Shown piece after piece: positions 20,301 through 56,300 of a stretch of 64,000 bases of DNA. Position numbers: made by a program. Every line of letters begins with the position of its first letter. The stretch's first letter is position 1. This DNA is from Escherichia coli (GTDB lineage: Bacteria > Pseudomonadota > Gammaproteobacteria > Enterobacterales > Enterobacteriaceae), in assembly GCF_044324875.1 (NCBI RefSeq), contig NZ_CP172185.1. One strand, written 5' to 3'.

Positions 20301-23300
20301 GCGCGAAAGGTAAACTGTTCAAAACCAAAACCGGCGAACTGTCTATCCACTGCACCGAGCTGCGTCTGCTGACCAAAGCACTGCGTCCGCTGCCGGACAA
20401 ATTCCACGGCTTGCAGGATCAGGAAGCGCGCTATCGTCAGCGTTATCTGGATCTCATCTCTAACGATGAATCCCGCAACACCTTTAAAGTGCGCTCGCAG
20501 ATCCTCTCTGGTATTCGCCAGTTCATGGTGAACCGCGGCTTTATGGAAGTTGAAACGCCGATGATGCAGGTGATCCCAGGCGGTGCCGCTGCGCGTCCGT
20601 TTATCACCCACCATAATGCGCTGGATCTCGACATGTACCTGCGTATCGCGCCGGAACTGTACCTCAAGCGTCTGGTGGTCGGTGGCTTCGAGCGTGTATT
20701 CGAAATCAACCGTAACTTCCGTAACGAAGGTATTTCCGTACGTCATAACCCAGAGTTCACCATGATGGAACTCTATATGGCTTACGCAGATTACAAAGAT
20801 CTTATCGAGCTGACCGAATCGCTGTTCCGTACTCTGGCACAGGATATTCTCGGTAAGACGGAAGTGACCTACGGCGACGTAACGCTGGACTTCGGTAAGC
20901 CGTTCGAAAAACTGACCATGCGTGAAGCGATCAAGAAATATCGCCCGGAAACCGACATGGCAGATCTGGACAACTTCGACTCTGCGAAAGCGATTGCTGA
21001 ATCTATCGGTATCCACGTTGAGAAGAGCTGGGGTCTGGGCCGTATCGTTACCGAGATCTTCGAAGAAGTGGCAGAAGCACATCTGATTCAGCCGACCTTC
21101 ATTACTGAATATCCGGCAGAAGTTTCTCCGCTGGCGCGTCGTAACGACGTTAACCCGGAAATCACTGACCGCTTTGAGTTCTTTATCGGTGGTCGTGAAA
21201 TCGGTAACGGCTTTAGCGAGCTGAATGACGCGGAAGATCAGGCGCAGCGCTTCCTGGATCAGGTTGCCGCGAAAGACGCAGGCGACGACGAAGCGATGTT
21301 CTACGACGAAGATTACGTCACCGCACTGGAACATGGCTTACCGCCGACAGCAGGTCTGGGAATTGGTATCGACCGTATGGTAATGCTGTTCACCAACAGC
21401 CATACCATCCGCGACGTTATTCTGTTCCCGGCGATGCGTCCGGTGAAATAAGCATTACGTTATGCTCACAACCCCGGCAAATGTCGGGGTTTTTTAATTG
21501 TGCTGCGCGAAAGCAGACAACAATTTTCTTGCTTCACTATTGGCTGCCTGCATCACCATCCACGGACTGAACGCCCACGGCGTGGCATCAATACCACGTA
21601 ATACATCTGCTAAATCACACCATTGATAATCCATCACTTCATCATCGTTGATCTGTAACGCACTGGTGGTGCGTGCGGCAAATACCGGACACACTTCATT
21701 TTCCACAATGCCATTCGGATCGGTGGCGCGGTAGCGAAAGTCAGGATAGACCGGTTCTGGTGCTGTTATTTCCACACCCAGTTCAAAGCGGCAACGGCGG
21801 ATCACCGCGTCTTCGTTGCTTTCGCCCATTTGTGGGTGCCCACAAACCGAGTTAGTCCACACGCCCGGCCACGCTTTTTTGCTAAGGGCGCGGCGGGTAA
21901 CTAATAATTGCCCTTTGGCATTAAACAGCCAACTGGAGAACGCGAGATGTAAGAGAGTGTCTGCCGTGTGTGCGGCATACTTTTCCAGCGTACCCGTGGG
22001 AACTCCCTGTGCATTCAATAAAATGACGTGTTCCGTTTGCATAATTTCTCACATGTAATTCTAATCACTCATCATTATAGATAATTGAAGAGTGAAATGA
22101 TTAACCAAGTGAGCGTTTATCGACAACCGCCCGTTTTGAGCGGATGTCGACAGGTAAAACCATTTAAAAAAGCAGCATCATATATTTGAAGCGACTTTCA
22201 ATGGCCATTGCAACACAGTCAGAAATGACAGGAATAGAGAGAGTAAAAAGCAACAACAGACTGAATATAGCGCGCATTAAAAGATTCATATTATTCTCCA
22301 TGCTCATTTTTCTTCAGCTTGCGCATCAGAAGCCACATACGTACTGTCCTGACTTTTAAATCTTTATCAGAGACGGATTCCTTCACCAGATCAGCATGAT
22401 GCTGATAGCCATTAAAGAAGACGTTCAGCACAACGGCGCTAAGGGTTGCGAGCATAATGCCGCTATGCAGCAACGATTGCAGTACGGCCGGTAACTTAGA
22501 AAAGAAATCGTGAGAGAGCGTCGGAGTCATGCCAACGCCGAGACTGATCGCCACAATATAGAGGTTGTAACGGTTGGTGGTGTAGTTACAGCGCGACAGA
22601 ATTCGAATCCCTGTCGCCAGTACCATGCCGAACATCACCAGCCCAGCGCCGCCCAGCACAAATTGCGGAATGGAGGCGACCAGCACCGCCATTTTTGGCA
22701 CCATGCCAAACAGGATTAATATAATTCCCGAAGAAATACACACCCAGCGGCTATGAACGCGCGTCACGCTAACCAGGCCAACGTTTTGTGAAAATGAAGT
22801 GTGGGGGAAGCTGTTAAACGTTCCGCCTATCATTGTCCCTACGCCATCGACACGCAGCCCGCGAATAATATCGTGTGAAGAGAGTTTACGACCAACTATT
22901 TCACCCAGTGCCAGGAACATCCCCATCGACTCGATAAACACGATGATTAACACGGCAGTCATGGTCAGAATGGAAACGGGATCGAAAATCGGCATACCAA
23001 ATGACATCGGCGTGACAATCGCAAACCATGAAGCATCATGTAGCCCGGATAAATTGACTTCATTCATCATCCACGAAAGTAAAAAGCCAAATACAATCCC
23101 CAGTAATACGGCGACGTTGGACATAAATCCTTTCGCATAGCGAGTAATGAGCAAGATAAAAATTAAGACGGCAAAGGAGATACCTAAATAAACGGGATTA
23201 CCATATTGCGGATTCCCTTTACCTCCGGCGGCCCAGTCAATACCCACCTGAATGATGCTAAGCCCGATAGAAGTAATCACCACACCGGTAACCAGTGGCG

Positions 23301-53300: not shown

Positions 53301-56300
53301 CTTGCTGGTTCTGGCACTCTGCACGGCGTTTTTCCCATTCAAAGATTTTCCGGCCTTTTTCAAGACACTCCGGCAACCCTGCGCTGTAAATACGTTTGCC
53401 CGTGAGCGGATTAGCATCTCCTTCGTGGGCGGCGTTGCGTAAACGAATTTCAACAGGATCAATACCTAACGCTGTCGCGGCGTCATCAAGCATAGACTCA
53501 ACGGCAAATACGACTTGTGGCGCGCCATAACCACGCATCGCACCAGCCGAGGGGAGGTTGGTATAGCAGGTCTTTGAACTGTAAGCGTAGGCACAACGAG
53601 GATAAAGGTAAGCGACTTTATTTCCGCCCGCAGAAGCGATGGAGTGCCCGTGAGATGCATAAGCGCCGGTGTTAGACAGAACATCCAGACTATAACCTTT
53701 CAATGTTCCGTCGCGGTTCACGCCCATTTGCCCGTCAATAGTAAAAGCGTGGCGGGTACGGGTTGCGAGGAAACACTCTTCACGGCTAAGGGAAACTTTC
53801 ACCGGAATGCCGCCAAGCTTGCTGGTCAGGAATGCCGCCATTGGCTCTTCCAGCACATCCTGTTTATTACCAAAACCGCCACCGACAAACGGTTTGATAA
53901 CTCGTACGCATGACCAGGGAATATCCAGCGCCTGACCAACTACGCGGCGAACAATGTGCGGGATCTGGGTGCTGGAAACGATGGTAATTCGAGAGTCATC
54001 CTCCATCCATGCCAGCGATGTCACGCTTTCCATATGACAATGTTGAATAACGGGAGTCTGATAGTGCCCCTGCACCTGGTAATCGGCGGCATCGATTGTT
54101 TGTTGGACATTACCCGTCGACATCGAGCTTTGTTTTAGTAAATTGCCGCCGTTATGGATTGGTGCAGCGTCATCTGCCAGCGCCGCTTCTGGCGTGGTGA
54201 TAACGGGTAATTCTTGCCACTCAATGCTGACCAATTGCGCCGCTTTTTCTGCCGTGAGTTCATCACGGGCCACGACGATGGCAACGGCGTCACCATGATG
54301 ACGAACATGGCGAGTTAGCAGTGCGCGATCGGCGGTATCGCGCTTGTTTTCATCAAGTGTCCAGGCGTGCCCAGCTGTAGCGAATGGGATATCAGGTACA
54401 TCTTCCCAGGTAAAAATCGCCAGTACGCCTGGTAAACTTCTGGCTTGTTCATCATTAATACTTACGGCATAACCATGTGCGATAGGGCTACGTACATATT
54501 TCGCGTAACACATGCCCGCCATAACATAATCGTCAGTATATCGTGCCCGCCCGGTGACCTTAGCAATGGCATCTACGCGCATGCATGATTCACCTGTAGC
54601 GGTTGCTTCCCGCGCTTCCATAGAAATCCCCTCGATTTGAACATTTGGTTCTTATGGCAAAGATTTAGTCTAAGCAGGCAAGATTTACGCCAGAAACGAC
54701 GATAAGCGTTAAGGGAGGAAGGAAGTGTGATGATGTTAAAAAAACACAGATATGATACGAAACAGGACCCTGAATAGGGGCAGTGATACGTATCAATATG
54801 AGTGGCGATAAAATCAATGTGATAAATTGGGATTATTACGCATCAGGATGGGAAATAGGGTAAATGAGTCAGGAAATTCGATACATCTACAGTGAATATT
54901 TTGCTGATGATACTTCCCTTTGCCAAATGAAATTAACCTCTTTCTCTATTACCGCGTTTTTCCAGAAGCAAGAGATTGGGTATCAAGAGGCTGGCTGCTA
55001 TGATATGGCGTCTTGTTTTTTAAGCGAGGAAAGATTTTGAGTGCGGGACGCCTGAATAAAAAATCTCTGGGTATCGTGATGTTGTTATCGGTTGGACTGC
55101 TTTTGGCGGGCTGCTCGGGTAGCAAATCATCCGATACAGGAACGTATTCCGGCTCCGTTTACACCGTGAAACGGGGGGATACGCTATATCGTATTTCGCG
55201 CACCACGGGAACCAGCGTAAAAGAGCTTGCGCGACTGAACGGCATTTCCCCCCCTTACACCATTGAAGTTGGTCAGAAACTAAAACTGGGTGGGGCGAAA
55301 AGTAGCAGTACACGTAAATCAACCGCCAAATCAACGACCAAAACCGCATCGGTTACACCGTCATCAGCAGTACCGAAATCTTCCTGGCCGCCAGTAGGGC
55401 AACGTTGTTGGTTATGGCCAACGACAGGGAAAGTTATCATGCCGTATTCGACAGCTGATGGCGGCAATAAAGGGATTGATATCTCAGCTCCACGGGGTAC
55501 ACCTATTTACGCCGCGGGTGCAGGAAAGGTGGTGTATGTGGGCAACCAGCTGCGTGGCTACGGTAATCTCATCATGATTAAACACAGTGAAGATTACATT
55601 ACGGCTTACGCCCATAATGACACGATGCTGGTAAATAATGGGCAAAGCGTGAAGGCTGGGCAAAAAATCGCCACTATGGGGAGCACTGATGCGGCATCGG
55701 TTCGCCTGCATTTCCAGATTCGTTACCGTGCTACGGCAATTGATCCGCTGCGTTACTTGCCGCCTCAGGGCAGCAAGCCAAAATGCTGATGGCGAATTAA
55801 TCAGCAGTCAGCAGCGCGGCACTTGCTAAGGAGAGCGTAAGGTTTATAATGCCTTACGCATCTCGAAGCGGGCGTAGTTCAATGGTAGAACGAGAGCTTC
55901 CCAAGCTCTATACGAGGGTTCGATTCCCTTCGCCCGCTCCAATTTATCTTCACCTCATCAACCTGCCATTTTTGTTGTATCTGATTTTCTATATTATCTT
56001 AATTCAATCGCTTCAGACTTTTCGCAATCGCCGTAATACTTCCCCATTTTTTTGTAAATAAAAGCGTTTACGCAATGCAATCCATTTGTAACAACCCAGG
56101 TAAAATACCTTATTTTCAAGTTGTTAAATAAGTGGTTATCTACGCTTTTAACAAACGATTGATGGAATCTTTTATGAAAGGGAAATCTACATTAACTCTT
56201 CTGCTCGCTGGTATATTTTCATGCGGCACATGCCAGGCGACAGGGACAGAAGTGACGAGTGACTCCGTATTTAACATTCTTAATTCCAAGGGGGAAGCAA

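Follow-up and report, generated by a model that had tools for sequence, protein, structure and literature searches.

The interval 22291-54582 of the window (the whole 64,000-nucleotide stretch of E. coli DNA analysed) is the chromosomal block uacT...xdhA, K-12 b2888-b2866. We hold with high confidence that the block is best explained by purine uptake and anaerobic reductive degradation of uric acid, with a sigma-54 regulator of its own and maturation genes for the molybdenum enzymes. Gene-by-gene alignment with K-12 MG1655 shows no gaps and the same order for 23 of 23 genes, all of them intact, at nucleotide identities of 96.8-99.2%. Both halves of the block, each at a coverage of at least 80%, are present in 5155 of 5426 complete E. 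coli genomes, and the block is a near-core chromosomal locus rather than a chance arrangement. The gene order is uacT, ygfT, ygfS, ghxQ, guaD, xanQ, xdhD, ygfM, ssnA, ygfK, mocA, yqeC, yqeB, yqeA, hyuA, ygeY, ygeX, ygeW, ygeV, xdhC, xdhB, xdhA. The span given in the original prediction is exact (22291 is the uacT stop and 54582 the K-12-type xdhA start). All of the genes that it named were found in the order stated, with families confirmed by NCBIfam and Pfam; its list left out ygeV (49141-50919), a sigma-54 activator gene inside the block. Each product passes the curated NCBIfam cut-off for its named family with the exception of GhxQ, which has Pfam support only. The block had been described as the E. 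coli anaerobic purine and urate degradation locus and as not new, and K-12 identity and the family profile matches agree. The locus and its role are already known, and the identification is correct but ordinary.

Purine uptake and the xanthine branch are encoded by the following genes.

22291..23739, minus strand: uacT (ygfU), urate:H+ symporter of the NCS2 family (TIGR03173, 509 bits, cut-off 414)
26618..27985, minus strand: ghxQ, guanine/hypoxanthine permease (Pfam Xan_ur_permease, 271 bits)
28021..29340, minus strand: guaD, guanine deaminase (TIGR02967, 635 bits, cut-off 375)
29355..30755, minus strand: xanQ, xanthine:H+ symporter (TIGR03173, 414.3 bits, cut-off 414.15)
50959..51438, minus strand: xdhC, [2Fe-2S] subunit of xanthine dehydrogenase (NF007387, 341.9 bits, cut-off 212)
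51435..52313, minus strand: xdhB, FAD subunit of xanthine dehydrogenase (NF007427, 532 bits, cut-off 287)
52324..54621, minus strand: xdhA, Mo subunit of xanthine dehydrogenase (NF007426, 1470 bits, cut-off 916)

The permeases are nearly unchanged from K-12 (UacT 482/483, GhxQ 456/456 and XanQ 466/467 amino acids identical). The closest genome is likewise annotated with UacT, and the NCBIfam profile search gave no match to GhxQ at E<=1e-10. XanQ would import xanthine, GhxQ guanine and hypoxanthine, and UacT urate; GuaD would convert guanine to xanthine. The oxidation of hypoxanthine and xanthine to urate by XdhABC has been shown genetically, as an xdhA mutant does not consume xanthine (PMC12507026). 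The K-12-type start of xdhA lies at 54582, whereas PGAP places the start 39 nt upstream of it, at the ATG at 54621. The longer form has the better Shine-Dalgarno sequence (GAGGGGA), and the 752-aa form of XdhA begins at position 11 of the NF007426 profile.

The degradation of urate itself is assigned to nine genes.

30920..33790, minus strand: xdhD, Mo/Fe-S subunit of the urate reductase (2,8-dioxopurine dehydrogenase) (TIGR03313, 2119.8 bits, cut-off 1102)
33787..34566, minus strand: ygfM, FAD-binding subunit (TIGR03312, 487.5 bits, cut-off 241.5)
34617..35945, minus strand: ssnA, amidohydrolase (TIGR03314, 739 bits, cut-off 455)
35948..39046, minus strand: ygfK, 1032-aa Fe-S flavoprotein (TIGR03315, 1776.9 bits, cut-off 835; Pfam Fer4_20 and Pyr_redox_2)
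42533..43465, minus strand: yqeA, carbamate kinase (TIGR00746, 384 bits, cut-off 358)
43513..44898, minus strand: hyuA, D-hydantoinase (TIGR02033, 675 bits, cut-off 393)
44951..46162, minus strand: ygeY, M20-family hydrolase (TIGR03526, 721.6 bits, cut-off 321.5)
46220..47416, minus strand: ygeX (dpaL), 2,3-diaminopropionate ammonia-lyase (TIGR03528, 651 bits, cut-off 532)
47474..48664, minus strand: ygeW, knotted carbamoyltransferase (NF005538, 823.5 bits, cut-off 453)

XdhD has [2Fe-2S], hammerhead and two Moco-binding domains (Pfam) and keeps Glu606, which lies within an 11-residue insertion that XdhA lacks. YgfM co-purifies with XdhD and the complex has been published (PMC12507026; PMC12990295). 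Several enzyme steps had been called poorly defined, which is out of date: two studies from 2025 reconstituted the whole route from urate to pyruvate, step by step. Li et al. (Life Metab, PMC12507026 / 10.1101/2025.05.19.654654) used enzymes of E. coli and C. difficile, and Liu et al. (bioRxiv, 10.1101/2025.04.24.650524) used enzymes of C. sporogenes together with genetics in that organism. The purified XdhD-YgfM complex converts urate to 2,8-dioxopurine by removing the oxygen at C6 at the expense of NADH (PMC12507026). YgfK is an NAD(P)H-dependent 2,8-dioxopurine reductase, and SsnA, shown coupled with YgfK, opens the pyrimidine ring of the reduced product to give ureidomethyl-hydantoin (PMC12507026). 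HyuA, shown with the C. difficile homologue, opens the hydantoin ring of this product to give 2,3-diureidopropionate (PMC12507026). Phosphorolysis of one ureido group by YgeW releases carbamoyl phosphate (PMC12507026; PMC12990295), from which YqeA makes ATP (PMC12507026; 10.1101/2025.04.24.650524). The second and last ureido group is taken off by YgeY (PMC12507026), and YgeX turns 2,3-diaminopropionate into pyruvate and NH3 (PMC12507026; PMC12990295). The two 2025 studies are at odds solely on which ureido group YgeW attacks first (commentary PMC12990295). Deletions with no purine phenotype had been named as grounds for rejecting this function; published E. coli mutants in xdhA, xdhD, ygfK, ssnA, ygeW, ygeX, ygeY and hyuA do have purine or urate phenotypes (PMC12507026; 10.1101/2022.07.24.501321).

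Two further genes encode putative electron-transfer proteins.

24175..26094, plus strand: ygfT (uacF), "formate-dependent uric acid utilization protein" (NF009451, 1499.8 bits, cut-off 1154)
26094..26582, plus strand: ygfS, 162-aa HydN-like 4Fe-4S dicluster ferredoxin

YgfT is a flavoprotein in which a HydN-like 4Fe-4S domain is fused to a GltD-like NAD(P)H/FAD domain (Pfam Fer4_11, Fer4_20, Pyr_redox_2). The NCBIfam search relates YgfS to HydN and the N-terminal domains of AegA and YgfT. It had been grouped with YgfK and YgfT as a large Fe-S flavoprotein, which does not hold for YgfS, a protein with only Fer4 domains (Pfam). Published work gives YgfT a role in formate-dependent urate use (PMC12507026; 10.1101/2022.07.24.501321), and electrons from formate may reach the two reductive steps through YgfT and YgfS. 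This route is not strictly required because XdhD-YgfM runs on NADH in vitro (PMC12507026).

Three genes between ygfK and yqeA are associated with maturation of the molybdenum cofactor.

39368..39946, minus strand: mocA (ygfJ), CTP:molybdopterin cytidylyltransferase (TIGR03310, 209.9 bits, cut-off 186)
40049..40819, plus strand: yqeC, marker protein of the selenium-cofactor trait (TIGR03172, 241 bits, cut-off 73; Pfam YqeC)
40867..42492, plus strand: yqeB, selenium-cofactor trait marker (TIGR03309, 415 bits, cut-off 220)

In YqeB an XdhC-type Moco chaperone domain (XdhC_CoxI and XdhC_C, residues 12-247) is fused to the TIGR03309 domain (271-526). MocA would make the cytidine-dinucleotide form of the cofactor. 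YqeB and YqeC may then install a labile selenium ligand, with selenophosphate supplied by SelD, encoded outside the block. A scan of the reading frames found no in-frame stop, TGA included, in any gene of the block, and the count of zero in both ygfK and xdhD was as predicted. Any selenium dependence had been proposed to act by way of a labile cofactor instead of selenocysteine, which fits this count and published work on selenium-dependent molybdenum hydroxylases.

The block is also marked by sigma-54 promoters. All five published K-12 sigma-54 ChIP-seq sites (PMC4591121) are kept here, four of them identical.

24112..24128, plus strand: PygfT, TATGCCCGTTTATTGCA, identical to the K-12 site
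39119..39135, minus strand: PygfK, GTGGTGCGATTGTTGCT, identical to the K-12 site
40450..40466, plus strand: promoter within yqeC that drives yqeB, identical to a K-12 site validated by mutation
48756..48772, minus strand: PygeW, CTGGCATAGTTATTGTT, two substitutions relative to K-12
54677..54693, minus strand: PxdhA, CTGGCGTAAATCTTGCC, identical to the K-12 site

PygeW is conserved in the related loci L004, L084 and L085. A weak sigma-54-like site (TGGCACTCCACGAGCA, 23823-23808) faces uacT. Between the ygeW/ygeV palindromes and PygeW there is a CRP-like site (TGTGATCAACCCCACA, 48830-48815), and a CRP site in this region is mentioned by Li et al. (PMC12507026). The palindrome TTMTCA-N3-TGAKAA is found 100-210 bp upstream of four of the five promoters. 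The copies (unstranded) are as follows.

23933..23947: TTCTCATATTGATAT, uacT/ygfT intergenic, candidate YgeV (DioR-type) upstream activating sequence (UAS); centre 172 bp upstream of PygfT and 117 bp upstream of the weak uacT-facing site
39303..39317: perfect palindrome TTATCATTATGATAA, candidate YgeV UAS; centre 175 bp upstream of PygfK
40693..40707: perfect palindrome TTCTCAATGTGAGAA, within the 3' end of yqeC
48943..49084: ygeW/ygeV intergenic palindromes; main copy TTCTCATATTGATAT at 48972-48986, 207 bp upstream of PygeW, and weaker copies at 48943-48957 and 49070-49084, the second 64 bp upstream of the ygeV ATG
54790..54825: two copies with 21 bp spacing (reverse complements of CACTCATATTGATAC and TTATCACATTGATTT), 104 and 125 bp upstream of PxdhA

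The 11-nt core TCATAWTGATA (at most 1 mismatch) occurs 9 times in the 64 kb against 2.29 expected, a number reached in 0 of 100 shuffles, and all 9 matches fall within the cluster. The 15-mer is present in 4 copies against 0.49 expected. Enterobacter sp. Bisph1 has 8 core matches against 0.44 expected with an unchanged distance between motif and PygeW. Raoultella and a metagenomic homologue whose YgeV is 44% identical keep this distance too. The positions and spacing of the ygeW/ygeV sites are alike in L004 and L084, where counterparts of TTCTCAATGTGAGAA also precede a yqeB-like gene. The palindrome equals the predicted UAS of DioR, a clostridial regulator of these same genes. An 18-nt stretch made up of TTATCATTATGATAA and its flanks matches the site ATTTATCATAATGATAAGG predicted for DioR in C. 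botulinum, and TTCTCAATGTGAGAA resembles the C. difficile yqeB DioR site ATTCTCGAATTGAGAATA.

The expected partner of these sites is encoded within the block.

49141..50919, plus strand: ygeV (isrR), sigma-54 enhancer-binding protein, GAF-PAS-AAA+-HTH

The Pfam search identified Sigma54_activat, AAA_lid_14, HTH_8 and PAS_8 domains in YgeV and no receiver domain. The best structural matches to an AlphaFold2 model of residues 1-265 (pLDDT 76.6) are the N-terminal GAF-PAS of DhaR and the SpoVT GAF domain. Other published roles for YgeV are those of an indole-responsive virulence regulator and an ethanol-linked one. Because the palindrome is confined to the cluster, is kept in three related loci and agrees with the predicted DioR operator, YgeV is probably the counterpart of clostridial DioR. 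It would bind the palindromes upstream of the xdhABC, ygeWXY-hyuA-yqeA, ygfK-ssnA-ygfM-xdhD and ygfTS promoters and switch them on jointly. The other published roles count against this scheme, as do two observations. The copy at 40693-40707 is 160 bp upstream of the yqeB start but downstream of the intragenic yqeC promoter, which is atypical for a UAS, and the motif search found no palindrome upstream of ybiY, a member of the YgeV co-expression set.

The palindrome could instead belong to some other regulator, such as a repressor that responds to iron, redox state or purines, or simply reflect the AT-richness of intergenic DNA. It is AT-rich with a partial resemblance to the Fur box, three copies fall within coding sequence, one copy is found downstream of its promoter, and its link to YgeV is predicted from sequence. 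We consider this unlikely, as the enrichment stands against dinucleotide-preserving shuffles in two species, no match falls outside the cluster within the 64 kb, and the distance to the -24/-12 elements (100-230 bp upstream) is kept in four taxa. Furthermore, the motif is identical to the one that comparative genomics gives for the clostridial bEBP DioR, encoded beside the same genes, and in one Clostridium genome a YgeV-like bEBP adjoins xdhABC.

The selenium link of the locus admits other readings as well. Regarding ygfK-ygfM-xdhD (ygfN) as a selenate reductase, in line with older annotation, would tie selenium to selenate respiration or detoxification, not to purine catabolism. Traces of this view persist in names: NCBIfam TIGR03315 is still a "putative selenate reductase subunit YgfK", TIGR03312 and TIGR03313 carry "Se_sel_red" short names, and the entry for the region in Haft and Self (PMC2276186) reads "purine catabolism and selenate reduction", with reference to Bebien et al. 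2002. It is highly improbable given that the purified enzymes act on urate and 2,8-dioxopurine, that precisely these steps are blocked in xdhD and ygfK mutants (PMC12507026), that urate induces the genes (10.1101/2022.07.24.501321), and that purine permeases flank them on one side and ureido-cleaving enzymes on the other. It is also doubtful that the E. coli hydroxylases use an ordinary sulfido Mo cofactor and have no selenium dependence, with YqeB a mere XdhC-type chaperone and YqeC dispensable or serving otherwise. The N-terminal half of YqeB is indeed a standard XdhC/CoxI chaperone (Pfam), and Enterobacter and Raoultella relatives have only this half beside the cluster. In C. difficile a yqeC deletion has no phenotype and hypoxanthine use is selD-independent (PMC11448449), and our literature search found no E. 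coli experiment on selenium dependence, whether of XdhD or XdhA, and no demonstration of a role for E. coli YqeB or YqeC. Against this, YqeB (TIGR03309) occurs across genomes only where selD is present, and phylogenetic profiling places it first within the E. coli locus (PMC2276186); within the cluster yqeB owns a validated sigma-54 promoter (PMC4591121). Purification from a selD mutant yields an inactive form of the orthologous clostridial urate reductase (10.1101/2025.04.24.650524). Both C. sporogenes (10.1101/2025.04.24.650524) and C. difficile require selD, and in C. difficile growth on xanthine and urate also needs yqeB (PMC11448449). Hydroxylase activity independent of selenium and of the maturation genes had been named as contrary evidence, and these clostridial tests instead support the selenium-dependent reading.

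The small addition of the present work is the conservation of the promoters and the shared palindrome tied to the DioR operator. The locus yields pyruvate, ammonia and ATP from uric acid without oxygen.

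The window is E. coli chromosomal DNA, and its block at 22291-54582 is real, correctly placed and correctly identified: a near-core locus of the species, here with intact and unremarkable alleles. Matches to a 20-kb query from it occur in 5374 of 5426 complete E. coli genomes; identity is mostly 95-99% and highest, 99.3%, for isolate AF39. The second half of the block has the same genome distribution as the first, and at least 80% of the query is found in 5155 genomes for both halves. As annotated in the closest genome and in K-12 MG1655, the genes run uacT, ygfT, ygfS, ghxQ, guaD, xanQ, xdhD, ygfM, ssnA, ygfK, mocA, yqeC, yqeB, yqeA (arcC), hyuA, ygeY, ygeX (dpaL), ygeW, ygeV, xdhC, xdhB and xdhA. 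Each K-12 gene maps on the window without gaps at 96.8-99.2% nucleotide identity, with correct starts and stops and no internal stops. All products except GhxQ pass the curated NCBIfam cut-off for the family they are named after; GhxQ has no NCBIfam match and a clear Pfam permease match. The K-12 locus (b2866-b2888) has been described as the "uricolytic gene cluster" (Li et al. 2025, Liu et al. 2023). It comprises 23 genes in the order and orientation found here and shares the five sigma-54 sites and the palindromes; the window differs from it in alleles only. The most diverged genes are mocA, ssnA and ygfK, with 6-10 amino-acid changes each.

The original prediction had placed and named the locus accurately. 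The limits given coincide with the stop codon of uacT (22291) and the K-12 start of xdhA (54582), and the genes are collinear with those of K-12. PGAP prefers an xdhA start at the ATG at 54621, where the Shine-Dalgarno sequence is better than at the K-12 start, and the NCBIfam XdhA profile reaches approximately 10 residues past the K-12 start. The genes that the prediction named are all present, but its list lacks ygeV, which encodes a 592-aa sigma-54 activator in the middle of the block. YgfS, which it counted among large Fe-S flavoproteins, is a ferredoxin of 162 aa whose only domains are of the 4Fe-4S type. It also regarded several enzyme steps as poorly defined, a view overtaken by enzyme work published in 2025 (PMC12507026; 10.1101/2025.04.24.650524). 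The locus is already known, and more fully than the prediction held.

Several features of the surrounding DNA were recorded. The gene idi (21494-22042), just outside the cluster, has 91.8% nucleotide identity to K-12 (169/183 aa) against approximately 98% for its neighbours, which points to a divergent allele or to a patch of local recombination. Directly next to uacT, at 22097-22289, are the small ORFs yqfG (41 aa) and yqfH; yqfG is intact, and a 1-nt alignment gap relative to K-12 may disrupt the frame of yqfH. The programmed +1 frameshift site of prfB, AGGGGGTATCTTTGAC, is present and exact at 18889-18904. With Rfam at gathering thresholds, searched over the whole window, the cluster gave no riboswitch or sRNA; the only matches, elsewhere, were a tRNA-Gly and one naRNA4/REP element. 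The latter is a REP-type nucleoid-associated RNA element matched on both strands at 12637-12714, where approximately 108 bp are missing from the closest genome. The spacer between the convergent yqeB and yqeA is 40 bp in the window (42493-42532) and in the closest genome versus 220 bp in K-12 (18395-18614 of the K-12 locus, L003), so K-12 carries approximately 180 bp extra.

Downstream of the tRNA-Gly(CCC) gene glyU (55868-55941), the segment 55868-64000 carries a GH15-family gene, a GhoT/OrtT-family toxin ORF, the AraC-type eivF and secretion genes of the ETT2 type III secretion island, whereas K-12 has only pseudogene remnants and IS2 at this position. The ETT2 secretin gene sctC is divided by an IS1 and is unbroken in the closest genome, NZ_OZ547136. 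The features of this insertion are:

59121-59528, N0-domain fragment of sctC
59524-60291, IS1, 768 bp
59539-60042, minus strand, InsB ORF of 167 aa
59961-60236, minus strand, InsA ORF of 91 aa
60351-61601, secretin fragment of sctC

The enzymes of reductive urate degradation through 2,8-dioxopurine are all encoded in the block. XdhD scores 2119.8 bits against TIGR03313 (cut-off 1102) and its FAD partner YgfM 487.5 against TIGR03312 (241.5); the two genes are adjacent with a 4-nt overlap. The YgfK reductase (TIGR03315, 1776.9 bits) lies 2 nt from the SsnA amidohydrolase (TIGR03314, 739.4 bits). HyuA, YgeW, YqeA, YgeY and YgeX, all above their curated cut-offs, form one co-directional run at 42533-48664. 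Anaerobic conversion of urate via 2,8-dioxopurine and ureidomethyl-hydantoin to pyruvate has been demonstrated with the K-12 and Nissle alleles (PMC12507026), which are 97-100% identical in protein to those of the window. Purified E. coli XdhD brings YgfM along, and the complex converts urate to 2,8-dioxopurine with NADH (Li et al., Life Metab 2025, PMC12507026; preprint 10.1101/2025.05.19.654654). In the same work YgfK and SsnA with NAD(P)H turn 2,8-dioxopurine into ureidomethyl-hydantoin, whose hydantoin ring is opened by HyuA; the enzyme assayed for this step was the homologue from C. difficile. One ureido group is then removed by YgeW with phosphate, or by the hydrolase UacY in C. difficile, and YgeY and YgeX complete the pathway to pyruvate; the expected steps are blocked in E. 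coli xdhA, xdhD and ygfK mutants (PMC12507026). Isotope tracing, genetics and reconstitution converged on the same pathway for C. sporogenes (Liu et al., 10.1101/2025.04.24.650524), and YgeW and YqeA were tied to ATP formation (10.1101/2025.04.24.650524).

XdhD is only 33% identical to XdhA, over the molybdenum domain. Loss of the catalytic glutamate from XdhD was considered and rejected, as the alignment shows it to be kept (KSISEIG in XdhD, KSLGEPP in XdhA). The arginine of the XdhA motif RGYGAP is replaced by glutamine in XdhD; this position probably corresponds to the substrate-positioning Arg880 of bovine xanthine oxidase. The closest solved relative of XdhD by sequence is 4-hydroxybenzoyl-CoA reductase (1rm6, E=2e-80), which like XdhD works in the reductive, dehydroxylating direction. 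An 11-residue insertion in XdhD bears Glu606, which has been implicated in substrate orientation (PMC12507026) and is present in the window.

The pathway follows the logic of the reductive pyrimidine (Pyd) pathway PydA/PydB/PydC, in which a flavin/Fe-S ring reduction is followed by ring opening by an amidohydrolase and by ureido cleavage. YgfK has the Fer4_20 and Pyr_redox_2 modules in common with dihydropyrimidine dehydrogenase, and HyuA belongs to the dihydropyrimidinase family. The urate locus differs in that its substrate is a purine, which needs prior dehydroxylation by a molybdenum enzyme, and in that two rings and two ureido groups are involved, one of the latter being kept as ATP via carbamoyl phosphate. 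The 2,8-dioxopurine clusters of C. sporogenes and Clostridioides difficile perform the same chemistry with a homologous molybdenum hydroxylase, SsnA, HyuA, YgeY and YgeX, and share the YqeB/YqeC/MocA accessory genes and control by sigma-54 and an enhancer-binding protein (bEBP). However, the clostridial urate reductase has no FAD subunit YgfM and is likely to use ferredoxin, and C. difficile has UacX in place of YgfK and UacY in place of YgeW/YqeA.

The accessory genes raise the question of selenium. YqeB (TIGR03309, 415 bits, cut-off 220) and YqeC (TIGR03172, 241 bits, cut-off 73) are encoded beside a molybdenum hydroxylase, the arrangement that marks the selenium-cofactor trait. YqeB, YqeC and YgfJ (MocA) co-occur with selD, and 10 of the 11 best-correlated E. 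coli genes are in this locus (Haft and Self, PMC2276186). The selD gene itself, for selenophosphate synthetase (b1764 in K-12), lies outside the window. The C. sporogenes urate reductase (DOPDH) is inactive if purified from a selD mutant (10.1101/2025.04.24.650524), and C. difficile growth on xanthine and urate needs selD and yqeB, while a yqeC deletion has no phenotype (PMC11448449). Selenium dependence is thus demonstrated for the clostridial enzymes and not for those of E. coli, for which we found no such experiment in the literature. The selenium-dependent molybdenum hydroxylases, including Eubacterium barkeri nicotinate dehydrogenase (PDB 3HRD) and the clostridial xanthine dehydrogenase and purine hydroxylase, have a xanthine-oxidase-family molybdenum subunit, as does XdhD, which is matched by 3HRD chains at E=1e-43 and 7e-27. 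They also share with the locus a cytidine-dinucleotide cofactor and the lack of selenocysteine. No in-frame TGA that could be read as selenocysteine occurs in any of the 23 genes, which extends what the original prediction stated for ygfK and xdhD. Its view that selenium would act through a labile cofactor rather than through selenocysteine agrees with this count, and any selenium in the E. coli enzymes would be a labile cofactor ligand.

In Enterobacter sp. Bisph1 and Raoultella, the loci retain ygeV, ygeW-ygeX-ygeY-hyuA-yqeA and a yqeB-like gene, and xdhABC does not adjoin ygeV. The product of the yqeB-like gene (281 and 275 aa) corresponds to the N-terminal, XdhC-type half alone, and the TIGR03309 "selenium" domain is absent.

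The operons of the cluster are preceded by sigma-54 promoters. Binding of sigma-54 in K-12 has been mapped 5' of xdhA, ygeW, ygfK and ygfT, and a site inside yqeC was validated by mutation as the yqeB promoter (Bonocora et al., PMC4591121). All five K-12 ChIP-seq sites are in the window with their -24/-12 elements, four of them identical and PygeW, the ygeW promoter, with two substitutions. A scan of the window with the bare sigma-54 consensus found 43 sites versus 42 expected, which is no enrichment, so the promoter calls rest on identity with the published ChIP-seq sites. Sigma-70 promoter-like sites were likewise not enriched. Terminator-like hairpins were taken only as hints to operon ends. 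A consensus scan alone placed GC-rich hairpins in four short spacers:

30895-30910, xdhD/xanQ spacer
34583-34607, ygfM/ssnA spacer
44914-44933, ygeY/hyuA spacer
47446-47467, ygeW/ygeX spacer

All four lie within what seem to be extended operons; internal attenuation or RNA stabilisation may be their function.

The probable activator of these promoters is YgeV, which has the composition of a bEBP: Pfam finds a PAS domain, an AAA+ sigma-54 module (Sigma54_activat, 237.6 bits, with AAA_lid_14) and a helix-turn-helix (HTH_8). YgeV was named IsrR for its induction by indole and called an orphan response regulator (PMC9426417). Pfam finds no receiver domain (Response_reg) in the protein, and residues 1-265, as modelled by AlphaFold2 (pLDDT 76.6), resemble GAF domains, among them the GAF-PAS sensor of DhaR from E. 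coli. In the two-component sense, then, YgeV is no response regulator. Searching contigs with full-length YgeV was swamped by generic AAA+ matches and gave one close orthologue, and the N-terminal sensor gave better results as a query. A C84-x2-C87-x5-C93 motif in the GAF loop (window 49141-49935, residues 1-265) is found in 15-16 of 17-19 homologues, enterobacterial ones as well as those of Clostridium and Sedimentibacter. In the sensor of a pathway that runs without oxygen, these cysteines may bind a metal or a cluster.

Comparison of the DNA 5' of the four intergenic promoters revealed a common near-palindrome. Its 11-nt core, TCATAWTGATA, occurs 9 times in the 64 kb with at most one mismatch, always in the cluster, versus 2.29 expected, and none of 100 dinucleotide-preserving shuffles reaches 9. 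The 15-mer TTMTCA-N3-TGAKAA, also with at most one mismatch, occurs 4 times versus 0.49 expected. The distances of the sites upstream are 172 bp for the ygfT promoter, 175 bp for that of ygfK, 207 bp for PygeW, and 104 and 125 bp for that of xdhA, a spacing usual for the binding site of an enhancer-binding protein. A further copy is associated with yqeB:

40693-40707, perfect palindrome TCTCA-N3-TGAGAA inside yqeC, 160 bp upstream of yqeB in the window; 2372-2386 in the Enterobacter sp. Bisph1 locus (L004) and 2421-2435 in the Raoultella locus (L084)

In all three enterobacterial genera this copy is between the yqeB sigma-54 promoter and the yqeB start codon. It is downstream of the promoter and so misplaced for a classical upstream activating sequence (UAS); it may act as a second activator site, as a roadblock or in repression.

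The palindrome is conserved in orthologous loci. In Enterobacter sp. Bisph1, whose YgeV is 69% identical, TTATCATTTTGATAA lies 202 bp upstream of a conserved PygeW and is followed after a further 97 bp by a second site, as in E. coli. Two others precede the yqeB-like gene; the locus has 8 core matches versus 0.44 expected. The same arrangement is seen in a Raoultella genome and in a metagenomic locus, the latter with a YgeV of only 44% identity. The palindrome is absent at ybiY, which belongs to the YgeV co-expression set and whose co-expression the motif does not explain. We found no description of the E. coli sites in the searchable literature.

The palindrome was compared with the Fur-box and FNR-box consensus, and these readings were dropped once the motif was recognized as that of DioR, a clostridial sigma-54 activator for which it was predicted as the UAS (Nie et al. 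2019, PMC6615313). The DioR regulon comprises ygeW-ygfK-ssnA-ygeY, dpaL-pyrC, yqeB, pbuX and xdhABC, and its function was listed as "unknown" in 2019 (PMC6615313). Like YgeV, DioR is a bEBP encoded beside the cluster, with TTGGCA-N5-TTGC promoters 5' of ygeW, ygfK, ssnA, ygeY, dpaL, yqeB, pbuX and xdhABC (PMC6615313). Its UAS, TTATCA-N3-TGATAA or TTCTC-N5-GAGAA, lies approximately 110-260 bp upstream of the promoters (offsets in the supplement table of PMC6615313). The motif, its half-site variants and the geometry are the same in E. coli. The E. coli ygfK site equals the C. botulinum ygeW site over 18 nt, and the TTCTC...GAGAA variant before E. coli yqeB has its counterpart at the yqeB gene of C. 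difficile. In one Clostridium genome a YgeV-like gene adjoins pbuX, xdhABC, mocA and ygeY. YgeV and the clostridial homologue found here are only 39% identical.

Because the palindrome is the DioR motif, the genes concerned are the same and the layout recurs in orthologues, we take YgeV to be a putative DioR counterpart and the palindromes to be its candidate operators. With moderate confidence we favor a model, built from sequence comparison, in which YgeV is the enterobacterial counterpart of DioR and reads TTATCA-N3-TGATAA and the TTCTCA/TGAGAA variant. The 32-kb block, including yqeB, would then be one sigma-54/YgeV regulon, and Bacillota and Enterobacteriaceae would have either conserved or exchanged the regulator together with its cis-elements. 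A purine intermediate, a metal or the redox state would be sensed by the GAF domain, whose CxxCx5C is conserved in both phyla. The model fits the putative "YgeV iModulon", a set of genes co-expressed in K-12 RNA-seq. It also fits the decreased ygfT expression reported for a ygeV mutant.

That the locus matters for urate balance in the host, for gout and for engineered uricolytic probiotics is established in the literature, and the window adds no new biology to it. The motif itself is not new, having been predicted already for DioR (PMC6615313). The sole increment is a testable map of the probable binding places of the activator in the E. coli cluster. Such a map might shed light on why urate degradation by E. 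coli is confined to certain media, and might aid the rewiring of cluster expression.
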